Of a DNA stretch of 64,000 nt, positions 4,962 to 62,685 are shown piece after piece; position 1 is the first letter of the stretch, and each line of letters opens with the position of its first letter. A program made the position numbers and the translations under genes. The stretch covers positions 136,650,001 through 136,714,000 of the forward strand of contig NC_086097.1 of assembly GCF_963921235.1 (NCBI RefSeq). The letters run 5' to 3'. Origin of the DNA: Mobula hypostoma (lineage: Eukaryota). Below the pieces are notes generated by a model. That model saw only the letters and a program-made list of their open reading frames with translations. It ran no database searches and was not told the DNA's origin.

Positions 4962-7797
4962 TATTAATGATTATGATATAGTTGGGATCACAGAGACATG
5001 ACTCCAGGGTGACCAGGGATGGGAGCTCAACGTTCAGGGATATTCAATATTCAGGAGGGATAGACATGAAGGAAGGGGAGGTGGGGTGGCGTTGCTGGTT
5101 AAAGAAGAGATTAACGCAATAGAAAGGAAGGACATAAGCCGGGAAGATGTGGAATCGATATGGGTAGAGCTGCGTAACACTAAGGGGCAGAAGACGCTGG
5201 TGGGAGTTGTGTACAGGCCACCAAACAGTAGTAGTGAGGTCGGAGATGGTATTAAACAGGAAATTAGAAATGTGTGCAATAAAGGAACAGCAGTTATAAT
5301 GGGTGACTTCAATCTACATGTAGATTGGGTGAACCAAATTGGTAAAGGTGCTGAGGAAGAGGATTTCTTGGAATGTATGCGGGATGGTTTTTTGAACCAA
5401 CATGTCGAGGAACCAACTAGAGAGCAGGCTATTCTGGACTGGGTTTTGAGCAATGAGGAAGGGTTAGTTAGCGATCTTGTCGTGAGAGGCCCCTTGGGTA
5501 AGAGTGACCATAATATGGTGGAATTCTTCATTAATATGGAGAGTGACATAGTTAATTCAGAAACAAAGGTTCTGAACTTAAAGAGGGGTAACTTTGAAGG
5601 TATGAGACGTGAATTAGCTAAGATAGACTGGCAAATGACACTTAAAGGATTGACGGTGGATATGCAATGGCAAGCATTTCAAGGTTGCATGGATGAACTA
5701 CAACAATTGTTCATCCCAGTTTGGCAAAAGAATAAATCAAGGAAGGTAGTGCACCTGTGGCTGACAAGAGAAATTAGGGATAGTATCAATTCCAAAGAAG
5801 TAGCATACAAATTAGCCAGAGAAAGTGGCTCACCTGAGGACTGGGAGAAATTCAGAGTTCAGCAGAGGAGGACAAAGGGCTTAATTAGGAAGGGGAAAAA
5901 AGATTATGAGAGAAAACTGGCGGGGAACATAAAAACGGACTGTAAAAGCTTTTATAGATATGTAAAAAGGAAAAGACTGGTAAAGACAAATGTAGGTCCC
6001 CTGCAGACAGAAACAGGTGAATTGATTATGGGGAGCAAGGACATGGCAGACCAATTGAATAATTACTTTGGTTCTGTCTTCACTAAGGAGGACATAAATA
6101 ATCTTCCAGAAATAGTAAGGGACAGAGGGTCCAGTGAGATGGAGGAACTGAGTGAAATACATGTTAGTAGGGAAGTGGTGTTAGGTAAATTGAAGGGATT
6201 GAAGGCAGATAAATCCCCAGGGCCAGATGGTCTGCATCCCAGAGTGCTTAAGGAAGTAGCCCAAGAAATAGTGGATGCATTAGTGATAATTTTTCAAAAC
6301 TCGTTAGATTCTGGACTAGTTCCTGAGGATTGGAGGGTGGCTAATGTAACCCCACTTTTTAAAAAAGGAGGGAGAGAGAAACCGGGGAATTATAGACCGG
6401 TTAGCCTAACGTCGGTGGTGGGGAAACTGCTGGAGTCAGTTATCAAGGATGTGATAACAGCACATTTGGAAAGTGGTGAAATGATCGGACAAAGTCAGCA
6501 TGGATTTGTGAAAGGAAAATCATGTCTGACGAATCTCATAGAATTTTTTGAGGATGTAACTAGTAGAGTGGATAGGGGAGAACCAGTGGATGTGGTATAT
6601 TTGGATTTTCAAAAGGCTTTTGACAAGGTCCCACACAGGAGATTAGTGTGCAAACTTAAAGCACACGGTATTGGGGGTAAGGTATTGGTGTGGGTGGAGA
6701 ATTGGTTAGCAGACAGGAAGCAAAGAGTGGGAATAAATGGGACCTTTTCAGAATGGCAGGCGGTGACTAGTGGGGTACCGCAAGGCTCAGTGCTGGGACC
6801 CCAGTTGTTTACAATATATATTAATGACTTGGATGAGGGAATTAAATGCAGCATCTCCAAGTTTGCGGATGACACGAAGCTGGGTGGCAGTGTTAGCAGT
6901 GAGGAGGATGCTAAGAGGATGCAGGGTGACTTGGATAGGTTGGGTGAGTGGGCAAACTCATGGCAGATGCAATTTAATGTGGATAAATGTGAAGTTATCC
7001 ACTTTGGTGGCAAAAATAGGAAAACAGATTATTATCTGAATGGTGGCCGATTAGGAAAAGGGGAGGTGCAACGAGACCTGGGTGTCATTATACACCAGTC
7101 ATTGAAAGTGGGCATGCAGGTACAGCAGGTGGTGAAAAAGGCGAATGGTATGCTGGCATTTATAGCAAGAGGATTTGAGTACAGGAGCAGGGAGGTACTA
7201 CTGCAGTTGTACAAGGCCTTGGTGAGACCACACCTGGAGTATTGTGTGCAGTTTTGGTCCCCTAATCTGAAGAAAGACATCTTTGCCATAGAGGGAGTAC
7301 AAAGAAGGTTCACCAGATTGATTCCTGGGATGGCAGGACTTTCATATGAAGAAAGACTGGATGAACTGGGCTTGTACTCGTTGGAATTTAGAAGATTGAG
7401 GGGGGATCTGATTGAAACGTATAAGATCCTAAAGGGATTGGACAGGCTAGATGCGGGAAGATTGTTCCCGATGTTGGGGAGGTCCAGAACGAGGGGTCAC
7501 AGTTTGAGGATAGAGGGGAAGCCTTTTAGGACCGAGATTAGGAAAAACTTCTTCACACAGAGAGTGGTGAATCTGTGGAATTCTCTGCCACAGGAAACTG
7601 TTGAGGCCAGTTCATTGGCTATGTTTAAGAAGGAGTTAGATATGGCCCTTGTGGCTACAGGGGTCAGGGGGTATGGAGGGAAGGCTGGGGCGGGGTTCTG
7701 AGTTGGATGATCAGCCATGATCATAATAAATGGCGGTGCAGGCTCGAAGGGCCGAATGGCCTACTCCTGCACCTATTTTCTATGTTTCTACGTTTCT
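4962..7797 (+). mobile_element. Young CR1 LINE with near-complete ORF2 (APE endonuclease + RT), 5'-truncated
   Basis: ORF 5086-7701 (871 aa) with VYRPP, GDFN, SDH, YRPVSL, YLDFQKAFD, SGVPQGSVLGP and FADD. The frame is open from 5002 after one TGG>TGA at 4999-5001; 3'UTR ends in a (tatgtttc)-type tail. Confidence 0.96.
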
Positions 7798-8839
7798 AGA
7801 ATGTAATACGTAATGTTTAATGGTATTGTTTCTTCTTGTAAAGAGACGCTGGGATGAAGTGTCTACCCACAGCCAATGGTTGCAGTCTGGCCAGCCTCCC
7901 AGTCCACTGCTGTTCCCTGTGATTCCAGCGGCAGTACACTGTCATGTTGCAGAGAGGGTGTCTGATGCCCTTGCATGCTGCAGGTAGCTTTTACACCAGG
8001 GAGGGCCAACAATCAGTGACCTCATTCATACCACTGCAGTCAGTTACCTTAGGGAGAAACGAGAGTCTATTTTAATGTTGTTAACTGTCTCTGAGTATCA
8101 GAAAAGTTTTCAAAGGCTAGTAAGGTTTGACTTGGCCAGTCTCCCTCTTCTGAGAAAGGTGCAGGCAAGTAGGAAGGAGAGCAGATGGTTGGTCAGGTAC
8201 GTTGCGTGCACGTGAGCTCGCTGTGAGCCACACCCCTGCCAGCTTGCAGAATTTCCAGGATTTGTATTGCGACTTGAACTTTAATTGAAATCTCATGTCA
8301 CGTTAGCACTACAGCGATGGGGGCGGTTTGATTTTTATTCTGCCACCTCCTGGAGGCCAGGGGCTGTGCCGGATTTGCTGATATACATTTGCCAGGTTAA
8401 ATCAATCAAGAGTATGTTAAACTGCATGTTCTGTGAATGCGAAGATCCTATGTTTCAGGAAGTGAAAATAGTCTATACAGTATTTAATTAAAAGGCATGA
8501 ACTAGATGTGCCATTTCTAATACGTTGTTGTAAAAAAGTGTTTCCCAATAAATATCTGCAAATACTGCAGTCTGCTTGTATCTCCTGTAGCCTTAGTTAA
8601 AGTAGTGGTTAATATCCTTTTTACTTCTGATAGATAATAGGGGTGAGGAGAGCATTTGATATCTATCTTGCACCATAGATTCTTCCACACAAATGCAGTC
8701 AATAATCTTCTCCTCTCACTTGCAGTTCTTTGAAATATCACCATGGACCTAATTTATTTGCATGAAAGATGCCCTTGACTTGTATAGTCACTTATTTGTG
8801 TTGAGAGTTTACTACTGTAAACATAATGCTCTTTCTGTT

Positions 8840-8998
8840 ATCCCTTACTCACTCTTCCTTCAGTTAGTCCTGACGAAGGGCCTCGGCCTGAAACATCGAC
8901 TGCACCTCTTCCTAGAGAGGCTGCCTGGCCTGCTGCGTTCACCAGCAACTTTTATGTGTGTTGCTTGAATTTCCAGCATCTGCAGAATTCCTGTTGTT
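8840..8998 (+). mobile_element. Short Penelope-derived unit with hammerhead motif, 13-bp TSD
   Basis: agtc-CTGACGA-agggcctcggcct-GAAA-catc-gact at 8866-8901; tgctctttctgtt duplicated at 8827-8839 and 8999-9011. Confidence 0.75.
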
Positions 8999-9309
8999 TG
9001 CTCTTTCTGTTGGTCCACTACCTTCAGCTTGTTCCATCCCAGCCGCCTTGCACTCATTGTAGATCTGTTCATCTAAAACTCTTATCAATCTCCTACTTTG
9101 CACCAAATTCTATTTAATTGTCACCTCCTATGCTACCAAACCTCATGGATTCCTGGTCCATAACTTTCAGGAACACACACAAAGTGCTGGAGGAACTCAC
9201 GAGGTCAGGCAGCATCTATGGGAAAGGAATAGAGAGTCAATGTTTGGGGCTGGGCTCCTTCATCAGTCCTAATGTAGGATCTCGGCCCAAAAATATCGTC
9301 TTAATTCCC

Positions 9310-10660
9310 CATTGTAAGGTGGCTGTCAAGACATTTTGCTGTAACTGCTTTAACGAGGAATTACAAAGTTTTGATCAGTATTGCAAAGAGCAAGTTTAAT
9401 GAATATTACGATTCAATCAGCAACTACTGCCTGAAGATTTTGACCAATCGATAATATCGAATAGCATTAACTGTCCTTAACAATGTTTTAGAAAACCTGA
9501 CATCTTTGTAAATTCCTTCAGGAAAGCTATTTGAATACAATATAAGCACACATCAAAGTTGCTGGTGAACGCAGCAGGCCAGGCAGCGTCTCTAGGAAGA
9601 GGTACTGTCGACGTTTTGGGCTGAGACCCTTTGTCAGGACTAACTGAAATCTCTTACTAGCTCTTCCTTCAGTTAGTCCTGACGAAGGGTCTCGGCCTGA
9701 AACATCGACTGTACCTCTTCCTAGAGATGCTGCCTGGCCTGCTGCGTTCACCAGCAACTTTGATATGTGTTGCTTGAATTTCCAGCATCTGCAGAATTCT
9801 TCGTGTTTACAATAGAAGCACTGCAGTATGCAAACGCAAAAGTTAACAATTTACGGTCCCAGTTCTGTTTATTGGAGTGACAAAGTGAAAGATCTGCTTG
9901 GATTTATAAATTCTGACGTCAATACTGGGCCATTATTATGTGTGTGTAATCACTTGGATAATAGATATTCTGATGGCTTATGAGAATAGCAAGCTTTTGA
10001 CCCTGTTGCTATTGCAAACACAACCAATATGAATTTAGAAGAGAGAACGTTGTATTTTTACAAAATACGACTAAAGTGTTGCCTCAAAAAAATTGCAGCA
10101 TTACTGTGATTTCAAATTTGTTGTTTCTGGGTAAGTTAAGACTGGTTCAATCAAGATGTTCACTGTTAAGTTGAACTACATGCCTAGAAAGGAAGAATTT
10201 GAAGAACTCTCAATTCTTGACATCGTTGCAAAATTTCAAGCTTCTAGTGCTGACTGTGAATGTGGATTCAGTCTTATGAATTCAATCAAATGTAAGTCCA
10301 GAAATGGACCAGAAGTGAAACATTTGGTTGATCTAATGAGGATTAAGACTCGTCTTTCATCTGGATGTGTAATTAATGTGGGCAGTGTTTATAGACAATT
10401 GATTTGTAATAAAGACAGACAGGGAGAAGTTTACGAAACATGAAAGATTTTCTCTGTTGTATGGCGTTTCATTGTACCCTTCAATTAATAAATAAAATCA
10501 GAAGTGTGTGATTTTTCAATCTAAATATTCATAGTATGCATATTACAAAAAAATTTAAGTGCTGCACAGTTTTCAGTCCGTGTATATATTTAAAAAAAAT
10601 TTCCAGCTCAGAGCATGGTTGCTCTGCTCAGCTATAAAAATAAATTAGAGAATACGTTGC
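9310..10660 (+). mobile_element. hAT transposon remnant (C-terminal dimerisation domain)
   Basis: ORF 10156-10443 ASSADCECGFSLMNSIKCKSRN...LMRIK fits the hAT SSA.CER.FS.M..IK...RNRL motif; boundaries approximate. Confidence 0.7.
9550..9807. mobile_element. Fold-back Penelope-derived element with two inverted hammerhead motifs, 14-bp TSD
   Basis: Inverted arms 9547-9648 and 9668-9769 with a 19-nt spacer; tacaatataagcac (9536-9549) vs tacaatagaagcac (9808-9821). Confidence 0.8.
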
Positions 10661-10874
10661 TGTGGAGGCAAAGGGATTGACATTTTGGGTCAAGTTCACA
10701 CATTAGGACTCAGGGTCTCAACCCAAAACTAGTTCTTTGCCTCCACAGATGCTACCTGACCTTAAGCTCCTCAATTTGTTTGCTTTTGTAAACAAGTGCC
10801 TCACTGGATACACGACTTTGGGGTGTTTCAATTTTTTCCTAAATATTACTCTAACTATGCATTTCTTTTTATAG

Positions 10875-11071
10875 GTTGCTTCATTCTGGTGCAGCAAGAG
10901 ACTCCCCTCAGCCAGGCGCAGAGCTATCCTTTGCCACTCGAACCGGAACTCGTCAGGGAATCGAAACTCACCTCTTCAGGGTTGAGAACAACTCCAGTCT
11001 GTCTAACTGGACCAGGCAAATCGTACAGGGCTGCCACAAAGCAGTGGAACTCATTAAAGAAGTCACAACCA
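10875..11071 (+). CDS. SNTB1: Beta-1-syntrophin internal exon (PH2 domain region)
   Basis: tttcttttttatag|G...ACCA|gtgagt; 197 nt. Encodes (R)LLHSGAARDSPQPGAELSFATRTGTRQGIETHLFRVENNSSLSNWTRQIVQGCHKAVELIKEVTT, matching the syntrophin motif SFATRTGTRQGIETHLFR. Joins the next exon in frame. Confidence 0.95.
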
Positions 11072-12239
11072 GTGAGTGTTTCCAGTGTGGGATGGGAGAT
11101 TATGCCATGAAAGTAGTATTGATTTATTATTGTCACGTATAATACAACAAAGCTTTTTATTTTGCAAGTCATCCGGAAAGATTATTTGAGTAGTACAAAG
11201 AAAACAAAATGCAGAGTATGGTGTTACATTTAACCAGAAAAGTGCAGGTCAAAAATAAGCTACACAGGTGATGATGAGGTAGATTGGAAGATCAAGAATT
11301 TATCTTTTAGTATGAGATGTCCATTCAAGAAAAAAAGCTTTACTACTTCATATAGTCAGACAGTGACAGAAGAATAAAGCATTCTAAATGATCATCATTC
11401 CTTTTTCTCCTTTTTGTACTTCTGAAGGGACTAAGATCCCTTGGGATAAATATCAAGGGTACCCAAAGCTTTATATTCAGCCCTAGTTGGTGAAAAAACG
11501 AATCAAACCCTCGCCTTCAAATTTCCAAATGATTGAATTGTACATAACTGTGGCAATCCAGTTTGAGTAGGTTGTATTTAATTCCAGGTTGTTTTGTGGC
11601 ATTTTCCATGCTGTGCAGACTGGTATTAGTTCTGTTGTGGAACTGACTCCCAAGTCCACAGTAGATGTGGGGTTGAAGGCAAAGCCAAAGAGGTGAACGA
11701 GGGTGGCGGTTGCAGGGTGGGGGTGGAGAGGAATAATGATGAAATGAGGTGGACACAAGCACCACAGTAAACAGTTGTTGTTATTAAGTGGATGGTCCAA
11801 AATGTTGCAGGACTTTGACTCGAGCCCTAATTTTAGGATTAGGCACTATGCTACTTGCTGTAAAGAGAGTGTAAGGAAATCAACTCATAACAATTTCCAT
11901 TTATTGGTATGTAATGTGATCATCTGTCTCAGAGGAGCCATGAGGTCATTAATGCAAGGAACTGTGAATATGTAGTATCATGTGGTGGACTGTGCTTGGA
12001 GATTGTGCTGAGTTTGATGGTTAAGAATGATCAGAAGTATGCGCACACATTTCATGGATTAATGATTACAGAGTTAATCCATTCAAAATGCCCAGTAATT
12101 TAACTCTTAATGACCAGTGAGGTAAGGTTTCAATGACTACAAACTTTCAATGGTTACATTGGGAGCATTTCATGAGTACTTTAGCCTTGCAGGAAGTGAA
12201 CTTGCAGAAAATACCATTATTCAAGGATTAAAACATGGA

Positions 12240-14026: not shown

Positions 14027-14213
14027 GCTACGTGAATCAACCCGTGTTCCAAGCCTTCACTAGTAATGCGCCTCTACTCTTTATACGCTACGTGGATCAA
14101 CCCGTGTTCCAAGCCTTCACTAGTAATGCGCCTCTACTCTTTATACGCTACGTGGATCAACCCGTGTTCCAAGCCTTCACTAGTAATGCGCCTCTACTCT
14201 TTATACGCTACGT
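14027..14213 (+). repeat. 60-bp tandem repeat x3 inside Penelope RT
   Basis: Lines 14041, 14101 and 14161 are identical over 53 nt; period 60; unit bounded by gctacgt. Confidence 0.95.
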
Positions 14214-14423
14214 TGAGGACTGCATTGGTGCTGCCTCCTCCACCCATGCTAAATTTGTTAATTTCATCAACTTTTCCTGAATCTTCCACCCCACCCTCAG
14301 ATTATTGGGTCAATCTGGCATCTCCCCCTCCCCCTCTTTGATTTTTCTCAGTCTGTCTCCAGAAATGGATTATCTATCAATATCTCTCACAAATCCTTGA
14401 TTCCCACAGATATCTGGACTATA

Positions 14424-14833: not shown

Positions 14834-15501
14834 ATCTCTTCCCACCGCTTCACACGTAAAATGTCATTCCCTTCTTTAAGTTCCTCTGCCACATCTGTTC
14901 TCAGGATGAGGCTTTCCATTCTAGGATTTCCTCTTATTTTTTCAAACAATGGCATTTCCCTCTACCACCACCAATGCTGCCCCCCCCTCACTCATACCTT
15001 ATCCATTTCCCACATGTCTGCCCTTGCCCTATTCCACCCTACCCCTCTTCCCCCCACCCCCAGCACAATATAATAGGATAGGGTTCCCCTTGTCCTCACC
15101 TACCACCCACAAGCTGCACCTGCTGGTCCTGGCGGCCTCCTCTACACTGGGAGACCATTTCTTCGAGCACCTTCACTCTGTCAGCTGAAACAGACAGGAT
15201 CTCCCAGTGGCCACCCATTTCGATTCCCATCATTCCACTACCCACCAGGGATAATACATAGCAGCCAATGAGCCTCTGCAGGGAGAAGGCACAAACTCCA
15301 CTCACTCGGAACCCAAGGTCAGGATTGCCAGAGCTCCGCCAGGTGTCCCACTGTGGCCCCCATTTCTAACTTGGGGTTCAGTATTTTCCTTTTACTAATT
15401 GCTGCTGCAGGTTGCATTTTCACTCAGTGCCACTCAATGCAGGCAAGTATTTTTCTTGACTGAACTACTCCTAATGCTGGTGTTATTTATGTGCCCCACA
15501 G

Positions 15502-15692
15502 CATGTACATACAGGACCCAGGAGTGCTGTCTGAAAATTCATTACGAAAATGGATTTTCTATCTTAAAAGACGCACAGGAGGGAAGCATGCAAAAGTTGA
15601 TTTGCCACTATTCCTTTGAGAAATTAAAGAACTCCTCAGATGATGGCGTGAGAATGCTCTATCTAGACTTTGGTGGAAGGGACGGGGAAATT
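15502..15692 (+). CDS. SNTB1: Beta-1-syntrophin penultimate exon (start of syntrophin-unique domain)
   Basis: ccccacag|CA...GAAATT|gtaagt; 191 nt. Encodes CTYRTQECCLKIHYENGFS...SFEKLKNSSDDGVRMLYLDFGGRDGEI. Phase 1 in and phase 0 out fit both neighbours. Confidence 0.96.
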
Positions 15693-15879
15693 GTAAGTAC
15701 TTTTCATTTCCTCTGTCTGGTACTGTAGTACAACTACAACAACTGTGTTCATATAGCATGTTTAATACAGTAAAACACCCTAAGGGCCATCATAGGAGTA
15801 ATACCAAAAAAAGGTGACATTCGTTATTGGGTTCTGATGAAAGATCATCAAACTGAAACAGTAACTGCTTCTCATAAAC

Positions 15880-16960
15880 ACAATAAATTCTGCAGAGGCT
15901 GGAAATCTTAAAGCAATGCATATGAAATGCCAAATTGCTGAAGGAACTCAACAGGTCAGGCAGCATCTACAGTTGACGTTTCAGGTTGAGATCCTCCTTC
16001 AGGATTAGAAAGGAAGTGGGAAGATGCCAGAATTTAAAAAAGTGCAGGGAGAGGAAAGGAAGACAGCTGGAAAGTGGTGGGTGAAGCCAAGTGGATCGGA
16101 AAGGTAAAGGGCTGGAGAGGAAGGAATCTGATAGAGAAGGAGAGTGGACCATGGGAGAAGGGGAAGGAGGAGGGAATCCAGGGGGAGGTGATAAGCAGAC
16201 GAGAAGAGCTACGAGGCCAGAAAGGGGAGGGGGAGGGAGAGGGAGAGGGAATTTTCTTTTACTGGAAGGAGAAATCGATATTCATGTCATCAGGTTGAAT
16301 AAGGAGTTGCATCCCCATCCTGAGGGTGGCCTCGTGGCACCAAGAGGAGGCCATCAATCGATATGTTGGAACAGGAATAGGAATTGGAATTAAAATGTTT
16401 TGCCACTGGGAAGAAGTTCCGCTTTTGGCAGATGGAGCGGAGGTGCTCGACGAAGCGGTCCCCCAATTTACAACAGGTCTCACCAATGCAGAGGAGGCTG
16501 CATCGGGAGCACCAGATACAACAGATGACCCCAGTGGATTTGCAGGCGAAGTGTTGCCTCACCTGGAAGGACTGTTTGGGGCCCTGAATGGAGATGAGGG
16601 AGGAGGTGAATGGGCAAATGTTGCACTTTGGCCGCTTGAAGGGAAGATGGGGTGAGCGTGGATGTCCGTGAAATGGAGGAGATGCAGGTGAGGGCAGCAT
16701 CAATGGTGCAGGAAGGGAAACCCCACTCCTTGCAGAAGGAGGGCATCTCTGAGATCATGGAAAGGAAAGCCTCACCCTGAGAACAGACGAAACTGAGAAA
16801 AAGGAATGGCGTTTTTGGAGACGGTGGGACGAGGTATAGTCAAGATAGCTGTGGGAATTGGTAGGTTTGTAAAAGATGTTGATCGACAGTTTGTCTCCAC
16901 AGATGAAGACAGAGATCAAGAAAGGGGAGAGAGGTGTCAGAAGTGGACCAAATGAATTTA
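15880..16960 (-). mobile_element. Penelope-like element 3' half (GIY-YIG endonuclease + terminal repeat)
   Basis: ORF 16290-16703 C..C...GVICCIWCSRCSLLCIGET..LGDRFVEHL...VAKHFN; degenerate hammerhead motif at about 15970-16006. Confidence 0.85.
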
Positions 16961-17118
16961 AGGCCCTTGTGTATTTTAAATCTTGTTGTTGTACCAGCCT
17001 GTGCAGACCAGCTGGCTGGAATATTCAATGATTCTAAAAGCAAGTAGAATCTCTTTCTATATGGCTATACTGAAGATTGTAATAACTCAGGGCTGCTCCT
17101 CTTTTGTTCCCCACCTAG

Positions 17119-17975: not shown

Positions 17976-18890
17976 TAGAAACATAGAAACATAGAAAATA
18001 GGTGCAGGAGTAGGCCATTCGGCCCTTCGAGCCTGCACCACCATTTATTATGATCATGGCTGATCATCCAACTCAGAACCCAGCCTTCCCTCCATACCCC
18101 CTGACCCCTGTAGCCACAAGGGCCATATCTAACTTCCTCTTAAACACAGCCAATGAACCGGCCTCAACAGTTTGCTGTGGCAGAGAATTCCACAGATTCA
18201 CCACTCTCTGTGTGAAGAAGTTTTTCCTAATCTCGGTCCTAAAAGGCTTCCCCTCTATCCTCAAACTGTGACCCCTCGTTCTGGACCTCCCCAACATCGG
18301 GAACAATCTTCCCGCATCTAGCCTGTCCAATCCCTTTAGGATCTTATACGTTTCAATCAGATCCCCCCTCAATCTTCTAAATTCCAACGAGTACAAGCCC
18401 AGTTCATCCAGTCTTTCTTCATATGAAAGACCTGCCATCCCAGGAATCAATCTGGTGAACCTTCTTTGTACTCCCTCTATGGCAAAGATGTCTTTCCTCA
18501 GATTAGGGGACCAAAACTGCACACAATACTCCAGGTGTGGTCTCACCAAGGCCTTGTACAACTGCAGTAGTACCTCCCTGCTCCTGTACTCGAATCCTCT
18601 CGCTATAAATGCCAGCATACCGTTCGCCCTTTTCACCGCCTGCTGTACCTGCATTCCCACTTTCAATGACTGGTGTATAATGACACCCAGGTCTCGTTGC
18701 ACCTCCCCTTTTCCTAATCGGCCACCATTCAGATAATAATCTGTTTTCCTATTTTTGCCACCAAAGTGGATAACTTCACATTTATCCACATTAAATTGCA
18801 TCTGCCATGAGTTTGCCCACTCACCCAACCTATCCAAGTCACCCTGCATCCTCTTGGCATCCTCCTCACTGCTAATACTGCCACCCATCT
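17975..18890 (-). mobile_element. Young CR1 3' fragment, same family as 4962-7797, inverted
   Basis: ORF 18073-18888 (271 aa) is almost identical to the C-terminus of the 871-aa ORF; catagaaa tail. Confidence 0.95.
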
Positions 18891-19429
18891 GGACATCATT
18901 GTTGATATTTCAACCATAGGACATGAGATCAGAATTAGGCCACTTGACTCATCGAGTCTGCTCTGCCATTCCACCCTGGCTGATTTATTATCCCCCTCAT
19001 CCCCATTCTCCTGCCTTTTCCCTGTAACCTTAGATTCTTGATTAGTCAGGACATCAAACAACCTCTGCTTAAATATACCCAATAACTTGGCTTCCACAGC
19101 AGTCCAGAGCAATGAATTCCACAGATTCAGCACCCTCTGGCTGAAGAAATTCCTTCTCATCTCTGTTCTAAATGGAAGTCCCTCAATTCTGAGGTTGAGC
19201 CCTCTGGTCCTAGGCTCACCTACTATGGGAAGCATCGTCTCCTCATCCACTGTATCTAGGCTTTCCAATATTTGGTAGGTTTCAAGTACAGGCCCAGAGC
19301 CATCACACACTCCTCATACATTGATTCTGGGAATGAAAGAGATAATCTCATGAACCTGCTCTGGATCCTCTCCAATGCCAGCGCATCTTTTCTTAGATAA
19401 TGGACGCAAAGCTGCTATCATTACTCCAA

Positions 19430-19845
19430 ACATGAGAAAATCTGCAGATGCTGGAAATCCAAGGCAAAATACATGGAATGCTGGTGGAACTCAGCAGGCA
19501 AGACAGCATCTTGTAGAAAAGAGTACCATCAATTTCTTGAACTTTTGGTAATTGCCCAATCCCTCCCTCCCTCATTCCCCATAACCTGCTTCCCCTCCTA
19601 TCTCCTTACCCTGCCCATCACCTCCCTCTGGTACTCCTCCCCCTTTCCTTTCTTCCATGATTTTCTACCCTCTCCTATCAGATTCCCCCTCCTCCAGCTG
19701 TTTATCTCCTTCACCAATCAACTTCCCAGCTCCTTACTTCACCCCTTCCCCTCTCCCAGTTTCACCTATCACCTGCCACGTTGTGCTTCTCCCTACCTTC
19801 TTGCTCTGACTTCTCATCTTTTTCTCCAGTCTTGATGAAGGGTCA
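19430..19845 (+). mobile_element. Penelope terminal-repeat fragment
   Basis: Inverted tctgcagatgctggaaatcc end, pyrimidine-rich body, truncated cagtcttgatgaagggtc. Confidence 0.65.
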
Positions 19846-20277
19846 TTTTATAAACCGTTTACACGGTACTCCAGGTATGGCAAATGCGTTATAAAACCTC
19901 AGCATCACATCCTTCGGGTTCATGTTTAATTATCATTCAACAATACATGAATACAGCCAAACAAAACGACCACCACCTCAACCTGCAAGTTATCCTTTAG
20001 GGAATCCTACACAAGGACTCCCACGTTCCTCTGATTTTAGAACTTACTCTCCCTTTACAAAATAGTCTACGCCTTTATGCATTCTGCCAAAGTGCATAAC
20101 CATAAGCTTCCCTCCACTATATTCCATCCACCACTTCCTTGCCCATTCTCCCAATCTGTCCAAGTCCTTCTGCAGACTCCCTGCTCCACCAACACTACCT
20201 ACCCCTCCACCTATCATTGCATTGTCTGCAAACTTGGCCCCAAAGCCATCAATTCCGTCATCCCAATTGTTGACATA

Positions 20278-41624: not shown

Positions 41625-42050
41625 CAACAAACACAAAATGCTGGAAGAACTCAGCAGGTCAGGCAGCATCTATGAAAATGAATAAACAGTCGACGTTTTG
41701 GCCTGAGACTGTTCGCCAGGACCGAAAAGGAAGAATAAAAAGCTGCAGGTAGGAGGAGGAGGAGCAACTGGAAGGTGGTAAGTGAAGCCAGGTGGGTGGA
41801 CCATGGGAGAAAGGAAAGAAGGAAGGGCACCGGGGAGGTGATAGGCAAGTGAGAAGAAGTAAGAGGCCAGAGTGGGGAACAGAAGATGTAAGGGGGAGGA
41901 TAAAAGGAAAAATGAAAAAAAAATTACCGGCAGGAGAAATTGTTGTTCATGCCATCAGGTTAGAGGTTACCTAGATAGTATATGAGGTGTTGCTCCTCCA
42001 CCCTGAGAGTGGCCTCATTGTGGTAAAAGAGGAGGCCATGGGTCAACATG
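41625..42050 (-). mobile_element. Penelope 3' end with degenerate hammerhead motif
   Basis: NEATLRVEEQHLI; motif ctggcga...aaaacgtcgactg on - at about 41687-41723. Confidence 0.75.
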
Positions 42051-43696
42051 GGAGTGATCCCTACGGAAAGTGGAAGGGGGGGGAAGTAAAGTTGGATGCG
42101 GAGGCTCATTAACCCTACAAAATCCCCAGGATGACATATTACCTGCTCTTTCATGGGGGCTCGAAGTCTTTTTTTTGTCATCTTAGATCTCCTTTACAAA
42201 ATACTTAGCATAAATCTGGCCTAATTAACAATTTTCCCACATCTTCAGTTGAAATCCATCCTTAACTAATACAAGCTCTGCTCAGTGTACAAATTCCTGC
42301 TCAGATAATGCTTCACAATGTAAACAATTCTACACCCGTATGTTTTCAGTTTTACTCAGCAAAAAGCTGGAGATCTTATTTTCTAATTCACATGTCAAGT
42401 ACTCTGGTAAATATAGTAGCCACCAAACTAATAGTGCTCAGTTTTCCTTAGACTTTTATTTTTATTCATTCCGAAGATGAGGTGTTTGTGGGAAAAGCCA
42501 GCACTTAAAGTCTAATGCTAATTGCCTCTGGAACCATATGATTTACCTAGACATGGAGCTAGGTATTTTTAAGTTTGCTGCTTATAAGACAAGGTTAGCA
42601 AGTTTCTGTGCTTGAATGACATTCTAGGCTTTTATGGCATTCTGCTAGGTTCAAAAACATTATTTCCGAGATTAAATCAATGTGGGAGAGAAAAACAAAT
42701 CACTTGAATATGAAAATTCTCAGTTTCCATGCCAGGATTCACTTTTCCCAATAAATAGCCCAGGGTTTGTACACTAGTCCAATTGTGTAATCACACTGCC
42801 TTCATAGCTCGATTTAAATTGGTGTATTATTGTCACATCCTGCAGTCTGTTACTGTATTGCCTTGTATTGCCTCAATGCACTGACCTGCACAGATGGGAT
42901 AAGGCACAACCATTCTATTCAGGCACACAGTGGTAACCTTCAAGTTTACTCCCAATGCAAGGTATAGTCAGAATAAAACCCAGCACATTCCAGTGATCAA
43001 AATCCAATATGGAAGATTAGTAGCAAAAACTACAGGCGATAGAGAGAAATCTATGTTACTGATCAATTAAATAGTATTGCTGCTTTGGGACACAAATTAA
43101 ATTACAAGTTCTTTGTTTCTTTAGAGAACATGGGACTAAATAATATATTACCAATTTCTCAATTAACATGTCAACAAAAAAGGACAAAATAATTACTGGT
43201 TTTACTGACAAAATGAACTAACATTTTAAAGTATACAAGGATTGAGCACATAATCCACAAGTGATACTTCCATTGATATAATGTGTACCATGACAAAAGC
43301 ATTATGTTAAGTTTTAACTATAAACAAGATCACTGCATCATTTTACAAAGCATTAGTACTTTTCTCAGTAAACTAAGTTCAGAAATAACTTCCATAAACC
43401 TTTTCTAGTAAAAACATGCCGATCTGTAAACACAAATTTATAAATTAAGCTTTTAATTCAGTTTTCAGTAGGGTTTTGGTGGAAATTAGAAAAGCTTTAA
43501 AACTACTAAGACTGAAAACTCAGCTGTGTAAAACTTATGTATCATCTACTCTCAGTAACACAACCCAAAGGCACTAGGTGTCAAGAAGCAATCTGAAGAT
43601 GATACTGGCAACAAGCTATTCCTTTTCTTTCCCATTTTCATGAAATGAAAAACATGCTTTGTTTCCTAGGTTTAATGATATAATAGCTGATTGCAT

Positions 43697-46967: not shown

Positions 46968-49900
46968 CATAGAACAAAGAACATAGAATAGTACAGCACA
47001 GTACAGGCCTTTCGGCCCACAATGTTTAGCCGATCCTTAAACCCTGCCTCCCATATAATCCCCCCACCTTAAATTCCTCCATATACCTGTCTAGTAGTCT
47101 CTTAAATTTCACTAGTGTATCTGCCTCCACCACTGACTCAGGCAGTGCATTCCACGCACCATCCACTCTCTGAGTAAAAAACCTTCCTCTAATATCCCCC
47201 TTGATCTTCCCACCCCCTTAGCTTAAAGCCATGTCCTCTTGTATTGAGCAGCGGTGCCCTGGGGAAGAGGTGTTGGCTGTCCACTCTATCTACTCCTCTC
47301 AATATCTTGTATACCTCTATCATGTCTCCTCTCATCCTCCTTCTCTCCAAACAGTAAAGCCTGAGCTCCCTTAATCTCTGATCATAATGCACACTCTCTA
47401 AACCAGGCAGCATCCTGGTAAATCTCCTCTGTACCCTTTCCAATGCTTCCACATCCTTCCTATAGTGAGGCGACCAGAACTGAACACAGTACTCTAAGTG
47501 TGGCCTAACCAGAGTTTTATAGAGCTGCATCATTGCCTCGCGACTCTTAAACTCTATCCCTCAACTTATGAAAACTAACATCCCATCAGCTATCTTAACT
47601 ACCCTATCTACATGTGAGGCAACTTTCAGGGATCCGTGGACACGTGCCCCCAGATCCCTCTGCTCCTCCACACTACCAAGCATCCTGCCATTTACTTTGT
47701 ACTCTGCCTTGGAGTTTGTCCTTCCAAAGTGTACCACCTCACACTTCTCCGGGTTGAACTCCATCTGCCACTTCTCAGCTCACTTCTGCATCCTATCAAT
47801 GTTTCTCTGCAATCTTCGACAATCCTCTACACTATCCACAACACCATCAACCTTTGTGTTGCCTGCAAACTTGTCAACCCACCCTTCTACCCCCACATCC
47901 AGGTCGTTAATAAAACTCATGAAAAGTAGAGGTCCCAGAACAGATCCTTGTGGGACACCACTAGTCACGATCCTCCAATCTGAATGTACTCCCTCCACCA
48001 CCACCCTCTACTTTCTGCAGGCAAGCCAATTCTGAATCCACCTGGCCAAACTTCCCTGGATCCCATGCCTTCTGACTTTCTGAATTAGCCTACTGTGTGG
48101 AACCTTGTCAAATGCCTTACTAAAATCCATGCAGATCATATCCACTGCACTACTCTCATCTATATACCTGGTCACCTCCTCAAAGAACTCTATCAGGCTT
48201 GTTAGACACGATCTGCCCTTCACAAAGCCATGCTGACTGTCCCTGATCAGACCATGATTCTCTAAATGCCCATAGATCCTATCTCTAAGAATCTTTTCCA
48301 ACAGCTTTCCCACCACCGACATAAGGCTCACTGGTCTATAATTACCCGGACTATCCCTACTACCTTTCTTTGAACAAGGGGACATCATTTGCCTCCCTCC
48401 AATCCTCTGGTACCATTCCCGTGGACAATGACGACATAAAGATCCTAGCCAGAGGCTCAAAAATCTCTTCCCTTGCCTCATGGAGCAGCCTCGGGAATAT
48501 TCCGTCAAGCCCTAGGGACTTATCCGTCCTAATGTATTTTAACAACTCCAACACCTCCTCTCCCTTAATATCAACATGCTCCAGAACATTAACCTCACTC
48601 ATATTGTCCTCACCGTCATCATGTTCCCTCTCATTGGTGAGTACCGAACAGAAGTATTCATTGAGGACCTCGCTCACTTCCACAGCCTCCAGGCACATCT
48701 TCCCATCTTTATCTCTAGTCGGTCCTACCTTCACTCCTGTCATCCTTTTGTTTCTTACATAATTGAAGAATGCCTTGGGGTTTTCCTTTACCTTACTCGC
48801 CAAGGCCTTCTCATGCCCCCTTCTTGCTCTCCTCAGCCCCTTCTTAAGCTCCTTTCTTGCTACCCTATATTCCTCAATAGACCCATCTGATCCTTGCTTC
48901 CTAAACCTCATGTATGCTGCCTTCTTCCACCTGACTAGATTTTCCACCTCACTTGTCACCCATGGTTCCTTCACCCTACCATTCTTTATCTTCCCCACCG
49001 GGACAAATTTATCCCTAACATCCTGCAAGAGATCCCTAAACATCGACCACATATCGATAGTACATTTCCCTGCAAAAACATCATCCCAATTCACATCCAC
49101 AAGTTCTAGCCTTATAGCCTCATAATTTGCCCTTCCCCAATTAAAAATTTTCCTGTCCTCTCTGATTCTATCCTTTTCCATGATAATGCTAAAGGTCAGG
49201 GAGCGGTGGTCACTGTCCCCCAGATGCTTACCCACTGAGAGATTTGAGACCTGACCCGGTTCATTACCTAGTACTAGATCTAGTATGGCATTTACCCTAA
49301 TTGGCCTGTCAACATACTGTGACAGGAATCCGTCCTGGACACACTTAACAAACTCTGCCCCGTCTGGACCATTGGAACTAATCAGATCCCAATCAATATT
49401 AGGGAAGTTAAAGGCACCCATGATAACAATCCTGTTATTTTTGCACCTTTCCAAAATCTGACTCCCAATCTGCTCCTCGGTGTCTCTGCTGCTACCAGGG
49501 GGCCTATAGAATACCCCCAATAGAGCAACTGCTCCCTTCCTGTTCCTGACTTCCACCCATACTGACTCAAAAGAGGATCATGCTACATTACCCACCCTTT
49601 CTATAGCTGTAATAGTATCCCTGACCAGTAATACCACCCCTCCTCCCCTTTTTCCGCCCTCCCTATCCCTTTTAAAGCACTGAAATCCAAGAATATTGAG
49701 AATCCATTCCTGCCCTGGTGCCAGCCAAGTCTCTGTAATGGCCACTACATCATAATTCCATGTATGTATCCAAGCTCTCAGTTCATCACCTTTGTTCTTG
49801 ATGCTTCTTGCATTGAGGTACACACATTTCAGCCCTTCTACCTTACTGTCTTTACACCGTTTATTTTGCTTCTCTTTCCTCAAAGCCTCTCTATATGTTA

Positions 49901-50400
49901 GATCTGGCTTTACTCCATGCACTTCTTTCACTGCTCTATCGCTCTGGGTTCCATCCCCCTTGCAAATTAGTTTAAACCCTCCCGAACCACGCTAGCAAAC
50001 CTACCTGCAAGGATATTGCTCCCCCTTGAGTTCAGGTGCAACCCATCCAATCTGTACAGGTCCCACCTTCCCCAGAAGAGATCCCAATGATCTAAAAATC
50101 TAAAACCCTGCTCCCTGCACCAACTCCTCAGCCACGCATTCAACTGCCATCTCCTCCAATTCTTACCATCACTGTCACGTAGCACTGGCAGCAATCCTGA
50201 GAACGCCACCCTTGAGGTCCTGTTCTTCAGCCTTTTGCCTAGTTCCTGAAACTCATACTTCAGGACCTCATCTCTCTTCCTGCCTATGTCGTTGGTATCA
50301 ATATGTATCACAACTTCTGGTTGCTTTCCCTCTCGTACTAGGATGTCGTACACCCGGTCACAGACACCTCGGACCCTGGCACCTGGGAGGCAATAAACCA
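46968..50400 (-). mobile_element. Long CR1 LINE: ORF1 SGNH-esterase C-terminus plus frameshifted ORF2
   Basis: ORF 49967-50353 (IHIDTNDIG, DGLHLN); ORF2 pieces YLNARS, VFYRPP, SDH, DFSKAFD, SGVPQG; acatagaac tail. Confidence 0.92.
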
Positions 50401-50460
50401 GAAGGATATGATGGGACTTTTACCCCGCAGTAATGAAGGCTGAAGGGTGACATTATAGAG

Positions 50461-55242: not shown

Positions 55243-55620
55243 CTATAATTATAGAAAGGTCAATAAGAAAGTACGTACATTTTGTAAAACAACGTATCAT
55301 TGGTTTTGTCAGTTTTATATAATGGCAGGATCAAACCATCTGAATATCAACATATTTTTTTCAGGATTTTACGTTGCTGAGAAAAATAAAGGGTAAATAA
55401 CAATACCTTGCAGACACAAATAGTGAGACTTATAACACCTAATAAGAAAAAGCTTTAAAATAAAGTGATAAATTGGTCAAAAAGCTAACAGAGGACAGAC
55501 ATACTAGATTGCAACTTAGAATGCTGAACAATAAAATTAAAGTGTATTTACGTCAGACTTCCAAAGATTCTGAGGAAAGGTAATCAATCCGAAACATTAA
55601 TTTCCTTTTTCTCTCTACCA

Positions 55621-55800: not shown

Positions 55801-56195
55801 ATCTCCACCAGGGCTATCTGATCGGCTGAGTATTAGTTGTATCAAATCTGTACATTTAGGTTGTCGGCTTTAGATTCTCTGTCTGTTAGCGAAGAAATGA
55901 AGAGCCCCTTGAACACTAAACTACGATGTAATTATCTGAACTGGAAAGAAAATGCAAAGGAGGTAGTGAATCTACTTAAATAAGAAAGATTTCATTGTGG
56001 AAGCAACCAAAGAGATTAAACAGATTAGCTTCACTTGTCACTTGTACATCAAAACATCGAAACTTGAGTGAAATGCGTTGGGTCTATAACTGACACAGTC
56101 TGAGGTGTGCTGGAGGCAGCCTGCAAGAGTCACGCAACACACATAAAAGCTGCTGGTGAACGCAGCAGGCCAGGCAGCATCTCTAGGAAGGGGTG

Positions 56196-56232
56196 CAGTC
56201 GACGTTTCAGGCTGAGACCCTTCGTCAGGACT
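56196..56232 (-). ncRNA. Minimal type I hammerhead ribozyme motif with intact core
   Basis: On -: agtc-CTGACGA-agggtctcagcct-GAAA-C-GTC-gact. Stem I agtc/gact, short stem II agg/cct, palindromic ACGT stem III. Within a unit (56134-56250) flanked by aagagtcac direct repeats. Confidence 0.65.
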
Positions 56233-56347
56233 AACTGAAGGAAGAGCTGTAAGAGTCACCATGGTTTTGGTGTCAACATAGCACTCCCATAACTTACTAA
56301 TCCTAACCAAATGTCTCTGGAGTGCGGGAGAAACCAGATCACCCGGA

Positions 56348-58879
56348 GGAAATTAGAAATGTGTGCAATAAAGGAACAGCAGTTATAATGGGTGACTTCA
56401 ATCTACATGTAGATTGGGTGAACCAAATTGGTAAGGGTGTTGAGGAAGAGGATTTCTTGGAATGTATGTGGGATGGTTTTTTGAATCAACATGTCGAGGA
56501 ACCAACTAGAGAGCAGGCTATTCTAGACTGGGTATTGAGCAATGAGGAAGGGTTAATTAGCAATCTTGTCGTGAGAGGCCCCTTGGGTAAGAGTGACCAA
56601 AATATGGTGGAATTCTTCATTAAGATGGAGAGTGACATAGTTAATTTAGAAACAAAGGTTCTGAACTTAAAGAAGGGTAACTTTGAAGGTATGAGACGTG
56701 AATTAGCTAAGACAGACTGGCAAATGACACTTAAAGGGTTGACGGTGGATATGCAATGGCAAGCATTTAAAGATCGCATGGATGAACTACAACAATTGTT
56801 CATCGCAGTTTGGCAAAAGAATAAATCAAGGAAGGTAGTGCACCCGTGGCTGACAAGGGAAATTAGGGATAGTATCAATTCCAAAGAAGAAGCGTACAAA
56901 TTAGCCAGAAAAAGTGGCTCACCTGAGGACTGGGAGAAATTCAGAGTTCAGCAGAGGAGGACGAAGGGCTTAATTAGGAAGGGGAAAAAAGATTATGAGA
57001 GAAAACTGGCACGGAACATAAAAACTGACTGTAAAAGCTTTTATAGATATGTGAAAAGAAAAAGATTGGTTAAGACAAATGTAGGTCCCCTACAGACAGA
57101 AACAGGTGAATTGATTATGGGGAGCAAGGACATGGCAAACCAATTGAATAATTACTTTGGTTCTGTCTTCACTAAGGAGGACATAAATAATCTTCCGGAA
57201 ATAGCAGGGGACAGAGGGTCCAGTGAGATGGAGCAACTGAGGGAAATACATGTTAGTAGGGAAGTGGTGTTAGGTAAATTGAAGGGATTAAAGACGGATA
57301 AATCCCCAGGGCCAGATGGTCTGCATCCTAGAGTGCTTAAGGAAGTAGCCCAAGAAATACTGGATGCATTAGTGATAATTTTTCAAAACTCTTTAGATTC
57401 TGGACTAGTTCCTGAGGTTTGGAGGGTGGCTAATGTAACCCCACTTTTTAAAAAAGGAGGGAGAGAGAAACCAGGGAATTGTAGACCGGTTAGCCTAACA
57501 TTGGTGGTGGGGAAACTGCTAGAGTCAGTTATCAAAGATGTGATAACAGCACACTTGCAAAGCGGTGAAATCATCGGACAAGGTCAGTATGGATTTGTGA
57601 AAGGAAGATCATGTCTGACGAATCTCATAGAATTTTTTGAGGATGTAACTAGTAGAAGGGATAGGGGAGAACCAGTGGATGTGGTATATTTGGATTTTCA
57701 AAAGGCTTTTGACTTTGTCCCACACAGGAGATTAGTGTGCAAACTTAAAGCACACGGTATTGGGGGTAAGGTATTGATGTGGATAGAGAATTGGTTGGCA
57801 GACAGGAAGCAAAGAGTGGGAATAAACAGGACCTTTTCAGAGTGGCAGGCAGTGACTAGTGGGGTACTGCAAGGCTCAGTGCTGGGACCCCAGTTGTTTA
57901 CAATATATATTAATGACTTGGATGAGGGAATTAAATGCAGCATCTCCAAGTTTGCGGATGACACGAAGCTGGGCGGCAGTGTTAGCTGTGAGGAGGATGC
58001 TAAGAGGATGCAGGGTGACTTGGATAGTTTAGGTAAGTGGGCAAATTCATGGCAGATGCAATTTAATGTGGATAAATGTGAAGTTATCCATTTTGGTGGC
58101 AAAAACAGGAAAACAGTATTATCTGAATGGTGGCCGATTAGGAAAAGGGGAGGTGCAACGAGACCTGGGTGTCATTATACACCAGTCATTGAAAGTGGGC
58201 ATGCAGGTACAGCAGGCGGTGAAAAAGGCGAATGGTATGCTGGCATTTATAGCAAGAGGATTCGAGTACAGGAGCAGGGAGGTACTACTGCAGTTGGACA
58301 AGGCCTTGGTGAGACCACACCTGGAGTATTGTGTGCAGTTTTGGTCCCCTAATCTGAGGAAAGACATCCTTGCCATAGAGTGAGTACAAAGAAGGTTCAC
58401 CAGATTGATTCCTGGGATGGCGGGACTTTCATATGATGAAAGACTGGATGAACTAGGCTTATACTCTTTGGAATTTAGAAGATTGACAGGGGGGATCTGA
58501 TTGAAACGTATAAAATCCTAAAGGGATTGGACAGGCTAGATGCAGGAAGATTGTTCCCGATGTTGGGGAAGTCCAGAACGAGGGGTCACAGTTTGAGGAT
58601 AAAGGGGAAGCCTTCTATGACCGAGATTAGGAAAAACTTCTTCACACAGAGAGTGGTGAATCTGTGGAATTCTCTGCCACAGGAAACAGTTGAGGCCAGT
58701 TCATTGGCTATATTTAAGAGGGAGTTAGATATGGCCCTTGTGGCTAAAGGGATCAGGGGGTATGGAGGGAAGGCTGGTACAGGGTTCTGAGTTGATGATC
58801 AGCCATGATCATACTGAATGGCGGTACAGGCTCGAAGGGCCGAATGGCTTACTCCTGCACCTATTTTCTATGTTTCTAT
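56348..58879 (+). mobile_element. Young CR1 (third copy of the 4962-7797 family), disrupted ORF2
   Basis: ORF 56322-58352 is near-identical to the 871-aa ORF until a frameshift near 58115; stop at 58381; same 3'UTR and tail. Confidence 0.95.
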
Positions 58880-61765: not shown

Positions 61766-62571
61766 CATGGAGGTTCCAAGAATCTACACATCACCAAGTG
61801 GTATCACAAATGGTAAATCGAAGCCTTCAGAATATTGCTTCAGAGGATCACAGCCAATCCTATACCAAATCTATCACTGTCTCATTATAAATTCCTGAAA
61901 TTATACTTAATGGATTAGAAAATGCCTAGTCAATGTATGGATGTGTAATATAGCAGTGTATGTGGATTGTAATCTATTTCCAGAATTTAGTCCCACTAAA
62001 GCCAGGAAACCAAATCTTAGAAGTGGAGTGAAAAGAACATTATGTTTTCTTCCTGAGACCAAGGATGAAATTCTTTTACCCCACTAATGTCTTTCTTTGG
62101 GATCATTCACTAGGTATTTTGGTACAGTATCTATATCTATTCCATCAATAAATTGTCCTCCTCCAGCTTAAACCTTCTCTTTGTATCATGAGTTACAAAC
62201 TGCAGCAAGTAATTAAAGTGGTTTCATAGCATGCACACCTGTGTTCAATTGTTAATAATAGGCATATGGTAGGCAAACTGGTATTGCCAATAAGACCACT
62301 GCAGCTGTTAGATATGCAATAAAATTAAACCAAGTGTGCATTCTGATCAATGGTGTTGTAACAAACATTATCATTAAGAGGAATGTGAAGGAATAACAAA
62401 GGCATATCCCTCCTTTGAAAGTGGAGATTTGATCATTTTAATTACCCTACAAACATCAAACAAAACCATTTCAATTGTTAACATGTGGAATAAAGGCAGA
62501 TTTAAAAAAAAATTGCAATGATTTAGAATACTTGGATAAAAACCGGGAATGTGGGATGAAAGGTAACCTAC

Positions 62572-62685
62572 CTTGAGGTAAAACAAAGATATTTTAAATA
62601 GACGCTGACTGCAAGAAACAAACGATTTATGGTTCTTTGAGATTCCATTATTCTCAAGGGTTTTTGCCACAACTTCTTTCAGCAT
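62572..62685 (-). CDS. MTBP: MDM2-binding protein exon (C-terminal domain)
   Basis: On -: tttctccttag|ATG...CTCAAG|gtaggt; 114 nt, phase 0/0. Encodes [38 protein letters not shown], cf. MTBP ILKEVV..TL...CSQRLFEISKFYLK. Confidence 0.94.

Follow-up and report, generated by a model that had tools for sequence, protein, structure and literature searches.

Truncation, a tail and an inverted partner are standard features of Penelope-like elements (PLEs) (PMC8557442, PMC3846280, PMC8969392). For the anole element PAc it is reported that both target strands are cut and extended, that two internal reverse transcriptase (RT) start sites define the tail, and that hammerhead mutants insert in vitro as before (PMC11167929). 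In a 2014 survey of minimal hammerheads, most occurred singly and were described as 'probably related to truncated PLEs', and pairs on opposite strands were found as well (PMC4209133). The same paper gives an ACGU-type palindrome as the presumed basis of the dimer helix III, and places the end of an intron of Drosophila virilis Penelope at the 5' end of helix I (PMC4209133). What defines animal retrozymes is an arrangement of tandem units that each contain a hammerhead, together with circular RNAs (PMC7229834; 10.64898/2026.07.22.740005). Their origin is traced to pLTRs in a preprint of 2026, which also notes that in most PLE insertions truncation has left a single terminal repeat (10.64898/2026.07.22.740005).

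We analysed a stretch of 64,000 nt from the ray Mobula hypostoma (hereafter the window; all coordinates are positions in it). Its copy A consists of the following features:

8827-8839, plus strand: left copy of a 13-bp target-site duplication, an exact 13-mer
8840-8999, plus strand: copy A, the last 160 nt at the 3' terminus of a PLE (end of the pLTR together with the tail), read as 5'-truncated; 93% identical to copy B over 160 nt; the loose ends of other copies are shared upstream and unique downstream
8865-8902, plus strand: hammerhead motif (minimal, type I), predicted to be cut after 8897; base A at position 8895, against G in most of the family, breaks the ACGU dimer palindrome
8965-8999, plus strand: optional 35-nt 3' tail, present in copies A and B and absent from C and D
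8999-9011, plus strand: right copy of the 13-bp duplication; its first T (8999) doubles as the unit's last base

The original prediction of a 160-bp unit with a hammerhead motif between perfect 13-bp repeats was confirmed in these rows. The flanking 13-mer occurs just twice in the 64-kb window, and none of 1500 random 160-bp intervals was flanked by exact repeats of more than 9 bp. Translations of the unit matched gene models of rays only (Mobula, Hypanus and Hemitrygon), and no description of the family was found in the literature, with Repbase and most subscription papers lying outside the search.

Three further young copies (B, C and D) lie in the window. The four are 90-94% alike and differ at 5-10 of 102 sites:

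9536-9549, plus strand: left copy of the 14-bp duplication around the inverted pair C+B, 1 mismatch
9547-9648, minus strand: copy C, the inverted, tail-less arm; its 5' end lies 19 nt inside A's start, and it overlaps B by 2 nt
9649-9808, plus strand: copy B, the arm with the tail; its 5' end coincides with A's (2-nt ambiguity)
9808-9821, plus strand: right copy of the 14-bp duplication
56125-56259, minus strand: copy D (56250-56134) with its 9-bp duplication (56259-56251 and 56133-56125); tail-less, with an intact hammerhead and the ACGU palindrome

Copies C and B form a single head-to-head insertion (9547-9808), in which a tail-bearing and an inverted tail-less arm meet in a 2-nt join and share one 14-bp duplication. 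A duplication of 14 bp with one mismatch was reached by 2 of 1500 null intervals, and the exact 9 bp of copy D likewise by 2/1500. The three predicted examples with flanking duplications were thus all recovered: copy A (13 bp), the pair C+B (14 bp) and copy D (9 bp). At the 3' side, A and B end at the equivalent of 8999, D at 8964 and C at 8960, which makes two classes 35-39 nt apart. Read as a whole, C+B is a long hairpin in which the two hammerheads are opposed. Matches to miRNA families of Rfam at 9596-9720 were far below gathering scores and were rejected as reflecting this hairpin only.

We conclude, with a probability of about 0.65, that copy A is the dead, 5'-truncated 3' terminus of a young and very abundant PLE, inserted by target-primed reverse transcription of a longer RNA. 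Among the observations that favour this reading are three from the window: the two 3'-end classes match the 30-40-bp tail described for PLEs (PMC8557442; PMC11167929), the pair C+B with its shorter arm and flanking duplication matches inserts described in Adineta (PMC3846280), and remnants of an older subfamily in the window range from ~85 to more than 1000 nt. The original prediction is supported insofar as copy A is the end of a PLE, carries a minimal hammerhead and was inserted by itself with a duplication of its own.

Such an insertion would proceed in four steps. By analogy with PAc biochemistry (PMC11167929), the GIY-YIG/RT protein of the element would nick both strands of an AT-rich target ~13 nt apart. 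RT, the enzyme presumed to lie behind the observed pattern of ends, would then start at one of two fixed sites ~35 nt apart, so that A and B have the tail and C and D lack it, copy A being primed at the outer site. Having copied ~160 nt, RT would halt shortly beyond the hammerhead, and the resulting cDNA would be joined to the target; microhomology of 2-5 nt is present at the junctions of B/C and D, and none at that of A. Finally, fill-in would leave the observed duplications of 9-14 bp. Priming from both nicks would yield a head-to-head pair, and the pattern of C+B reads like such priming at the two RT start sites.

The young copies resemble truncated insertions of EN+ PLEs in their two fixed 3'-end classes ~35 nt apart, 5' truncation, tail-less head-to-head arm, duplications of 9-14 bp and hammerhead in the terminus, and in the GIY-YIG ORF that lies upstream in the sister subfamily. 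They differ in being very short and very abundant, and in 5' ends that cluster just upstream of the ribozyme. On the best reading copy A is ordinary and of a kind already described, single minimal hammerheads in truncated PLEs having been reported in 2014 and the anatomy of tail and inverted arm being known.

Other copies were sampled by aligning contigs to positions 8480-9165; the contigs came from four public runs, which represent three organisms (X1, X7, X14 and X2, of which X2 is RNA by a guess only). Among the best-supported loose ends listed, those before 8840 were short (median 11-15) and carried one common C-rich consensus in three of the four runs (X1: 183 contigs, agreement 0.64; X7: 160, 0.61; X14: 66, 0.87); it was absent from the six rows listed for X2. 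Behind 8999-9001, loose ends in all four runs were mostly long (median 255 in X1, X7 and X2) and mutually unlike (0.39-0.48), as for unique flanks. X2 had a second set of long, unlike ends behind 8964/8965/8971, which matches the tail-less end of copy D. Because other copies run upstream with one common sequence and their 3' side opens onto unique flanks, 8840 is a truncation point of a longer element. By eye, this shared sequence and the 3' UTR of a GIY-YIG remnant at 15.9-16.8 kb are colinear.

The summed contig depth in X1 was 4.0 million at 8848-8870 compared with 18.2 on the flank. Depth is not equal to copy number, but this value and the four copies in 64 kb point to a family size on the order of 100,000 copies, and the very abundant family that had been foreseen is borne out. 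Exact-pattern scans found no copies of the unit in viral contigs or metagenome contigs. The use of depth along the unit as a truncation profile was dropped, since depth is distorted by sister subfamilies and by the private changes of copy A. Sampling of 5' ends via spurious translations (2, 0 and 5 proteins) was also abandoned and none were counted; the junction in P0001 is ambiguous, and antisense translations stop near the unit's start at an apparent splice donor.

No joint skipping 8840-8999 was present among the joints listed for contigs of the four runs, so the duplication of copy A is unproven by an unoccupied allele. One contig of X7, from another organism, crosses from the left flank into the unit and covers 26 letters of it; this is below the 31-letter bar of the method and suggests, short of proof, that the organism shares the insertion. 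X7 had no cover on the right flank and X14 none on either.

The older sister subfamily is 70-80% identical to the unit, and its remnants in the window include the following:

9169-9301, minus strand: head-to-head fold-back that turns at the edge of hammerhead stem I (turn placed by eye)
15875-16980, minus strand: longest remnant, with a GIY-YIG coding remnant (16628-16344), 3' UTR, decayed hammerhead and tail
19427-19845, no single strand: remnant with a 5' inversion, its 3' 85 nt on the minus strand and, on the plus strand, UTR plus one half of a hammerhead; GIY-YIG gave no match
41625-42100, minus strand: last ORF codons, UTR, decayed hammerhead and a tail-less end

The original prediction had placed GIY-YIG-bearing remnants with related ends at about 15970, 19832 and 41690. 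In tblastn searches with P0003, GIY-YIG coding sequence was clear at 16628-16344 (E 1.8e-36), was reduced to the last 36 ORF codons at 42040-41933, and had no match near 19832. At the identities given above, all three remnants belong to the older sister subfamily. A terminus downstream of a GIY-YIG ORF was seen in the older subfamily; within the 30 letters at most that the loose ends show, the young subfamily was linked to no ORF. P0003 itself matched Pfam GIY-YIG at E 0.002, under the curated cut-off, and its Atlas neighbours are GIY-YIG, HTH_animal and RVT_1. Its C-X3-C-XX-C linker, a pattern given for Neptune (PMC8557442), is a lead only. Pfam returned no family on raw frames of the remnants, and candidate duplications of the older remnants E-I, with guessed boundaries, were no better than the null. 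In the remnant at 19427-19873, the inverted part stops inside hammerhead stem II, and a possible 7-bp duplication (19422-19428 and 19867-19873) is within chance.

The hammerhead of copy A comprises stem I (8865-8869/8898-8902), the core CTGACGA (8870-8876), an unpaired A (8877), stem II (8878-8881/8886-8889), GAAA (8890-8893) and CATC (8894-8897). A descriptor requiring the core and a closed stem I matched four times in the window, and three of these matches are family copies; 200 shuffles taken together gave 1 match. The loose core pattern alone is weak, with 12 matches against a shuffle mean of 6.97 and at least 12 in 4 of 100 shuffles. The fourth descriptor match, at 55566-55602, is unrelated to copy A's family; it may be a chance match or belong to another PLE family. 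The minimum free energy structure of the isolated 38-nt motif consists of helices I and II (-10.8 kcal/mol in copy A), but that of the whole 159-nt unit departs from the hammerhead, with a stability that is not unusual (z -1.5). The Rfam search of the window gave nothing at gathering score, and none of its 9 matches at E<=10 within 8700-9900 was to a hammerhead family.

The palindromic positions 15.2-16.2 are broken in copies A and B (A at 8895; ACAU, 2 of 4 dimer pairs) and form ACGU in C, in D and in most of the family. In the contigs, G makes up 66, 67, 91 and 90% of the depth at 8895 in X1, X7, X14 and X2, respectively. The hammerhead core is changed in C, and the hammerhead of D is intact. 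The ribozyme of copy A is predicted to be inactive, its dimer palindrome having been lost by a CpG-type change. Since the predicted cut after 8897 lies 58 nt inside the unit, neither end of copy A was made by cleavage. On the best reading, the hammerhead is a passenger in the insertion, with a predicted cut site internal to the unit. Like the minimal hammerheads of metazoan PLEs described by Cervera and De la Pena (2014, PMC4209133), those of the ray have a 4-5-bp helix I, an unpaired base before helix II and the palindrome at 15.2-16.2 (ACGU in C, D and most of the family), and occur both singly and as opposite-strand pairs. They differ in a helix II of 4 bp, compared with 7-8 bp in Schistosoma (PMC4209133), in a first pair that is G-U in A, B and D rather than the conserved G-C, and in the loss of the palindrome from copy A.

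The 5' ends fit simple truncation less well. In three independent young insertions they fall within ~9 nt of each other (A at 0, B at -2 to 0, D at +2 to +7) and 19-28 nt upstream of stem I; copy C ends 19 nt further in (+19). Under exponential truncation, the probability of such a cluster is 0.027, 0.007 and 0.002 at mean lengths of 50, 100 and 200 nt (a post hoc value with n = 3). Of the four young copies in the window, none continues upstream, and the window contains 0 matches to the upstream motif. The cluster and the lack of upstream-extending young copies in the window count against a simple truncation reading. Truncation was probably biased rather than smooth, and the smooth truncation curve that the original prediction had named as evidence against itself is, from the clustered ends in the window, probably absent as well. 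Beyond the best-supported loose ends listed, unique-flank 5' ends across 8840-8866 could be many.

The sense 5' end of the unit (8840-8867) resembles a 3' splice region, with a pyrimidine tract and AG at 8862-8863 and 8866-8867, directly before stem I. This splice-like region could bear on the clustering of the 5' ends.

Clustered ends in the window are also what would be seen if RT primed at the upstream pLTR tail site of a tandem transcript and copied as far as a discrete 5' end of the RNA, either a transcription start or a processed end, lying ~20-28 nt upstream of the hammerhead. The solo-pLTR inserts would then be a programmed, 'strong-stop'-like by-product of an autonomous element and not random truncations. 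PLE transcription is reported to start in the upstream pLTR (PMC8557442; PMC6765202), and PAc RT initiates internally on pLTR-ORF RNA and gives a shorter product from a 5'-truncated template (PMC11167929). However, among the listed joints with at most 40 letters between, those of tandem type begin at varied offsets (about -17, -5, 0 and +15), and we regard such run-off synthesis as unlikely. Rather unlikely, too, is its extension, by which ray PLE transcripts would have a discrete 5' end ~20-28 nt upstream of the hammerhead, internally primed run-off RT would mass-produce defined solo-pLTR inserts, and some of these would be transcribed and re-mobilised in trans as a ribozyme-bearing, SINE-like family on the order of 100,000 copies, the missing step from PLE termini to animal retrozymes.

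The original prediction, a stand-alone unit that the RT/EN of Penelope mobilises in trans, amounts to an independent, non-autonomous and SINE-like family whose master copy is short. The clustering of 5' ends in all three independent insertions of the window and the very high abundance would suit such a family, as would two precedents: in Adineta, pLTR sequences are all that mobilisation in trans requires in cis (PMC3846280), and non-autonomous Chlamys elements exist (PMC8557442). Of the latter, MRC1 and its like are also short and non-coding and share the 3' end of an autonomous PLE; they are, however, defined families that form pLTRs and multicopy head-to-tail insertions (PMC8557442), and neither a defined 5' end nor a sequence of its own was seen for the ray unit. 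A master somewhat longer than 160 nt would be compatible with the proposal. Nevertheless, copies run past 8840 in three organisms, and the four young copies, for all their differences at the compared sites, show no common short-unit boundary feature; no promoter was identified in the unit. An independent short family is in our view distinctly improbable.

A true non-LTR retrozyme would require that tandem 160-nt units self-cleave, circularise as monomers and are reverse-transcribed. The unit shares with non-LTR retrozymes its non-coding nature, type I hammerhead, kinship to PLE pLTRs and larger duplications, and dispersed 'monomers' have been described for them (PMC7229834; 10.64898/2026.07.22.740005); a type I hammerhead and PLE kinship are also what was proposed for the animal retrozymes (10.64898/2026.07.22.740005; PMC7229834). 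One head-to-tail joint (9002 to 8840) was found in X1, but at a single-locus depth of 13.5 compared with millions for the unit. No abundant head-to-tail form was seen in contigs of the four runs, where such joints had single-locus depth only, and no tandem units with a hammerhead in consecutive repeats occur within the window. The loose 3' ends are unique flanks rather than the start of the unit, all insertions keep the PLE 3' termini and none is circularly permuted, and the motif is minimal, not canonical. The ray unit thus differs from non-LTR retrozymes in being single, in keeping PLE termini and in having no abundant tandem form among the contigs seen, and a retrozyme origin is highly implausible. 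The stand-alone retrozyme-like unit with ends of its own that had been predicted was accordingly not borne out: copies continue past 8840, an abundant head-to-tail form was not seen, the predicted cut is mid-unit and the dimer palindrome is broken.

The weakest explanation, a solo pLTR left by recombination or deletion in a longer insertion, is very improbable, for although solo pLTRs without a duplication were so interpreted in Adineta (PMC3846280) and recombination between two pLTRs would retain the duplication, it requires a partial-tandem precursor for each copy, leaves the two-armed insert C+B unexplained and sits poorly with four such copies in 64 kb without any internal sequence.

With copy A read as a truncated PLE terminus, the scale of the family is the useful part: a young family of such abundance holds many thousands of records of where RT starts and stops. 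A tally of ends within a single assembly can address both the role of the PLE hammerhead and the origin of retrozymes from pLTRs. If the short copies did have a master lineage of their own, they would be an intermediate between PLE termini and retrozymes as proposed by the 2026 preprint (10.64898/2026.07.22.740005).

In antisense, copy A has an AG before 8992, GTGAGT after 8852 and 47 codons between them (8852-8992), with an in-frame stop in this stretch. Its translation is present exactly in two gene models of Mobula (P0004 and P0005) and for the most part in a third (P0006); all are predicted models only. The family is thus a possible source of an Alu-like cassette exon in antisense orientation.

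In a scan of 96 of 155 candidate frames, a PH-domain exon (10855-11139, plus strand) and a syntrophin C-terminal-domain exon (15399-15725, plus strand) were identified together with an MTBP exon (62377-62685, minus strand); no upstream exon of the syntrophin gene was located in these frames. The unit probably lies in a syntrophin intron. By name and synteny, we take the convergent exon pair to fit SNTB1-MTBP.

Other elements of the window include an uninterrupted 899-codon APE-RT LINE frame at 5002-7701 (plus strand; Pfam RVT_1 and Exo_endo_phos), with two copies 95-97% identical to it (56347-58878, plus strand; 17976-18890, minus strand). Judged by these copies, the LINE family is recently active; it is presumably CR1-like. 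At 48008-50419 (minus strand), a LINE remnant has a GDSL/SGNH esterase domain upstream of its endonuclease. Three near-perfect 60-bp tandem copies lie at 14027-14216 in an apparent Penelope-like RT remnant, recognised by the motif FIRYVED and without Pfam confirmation.
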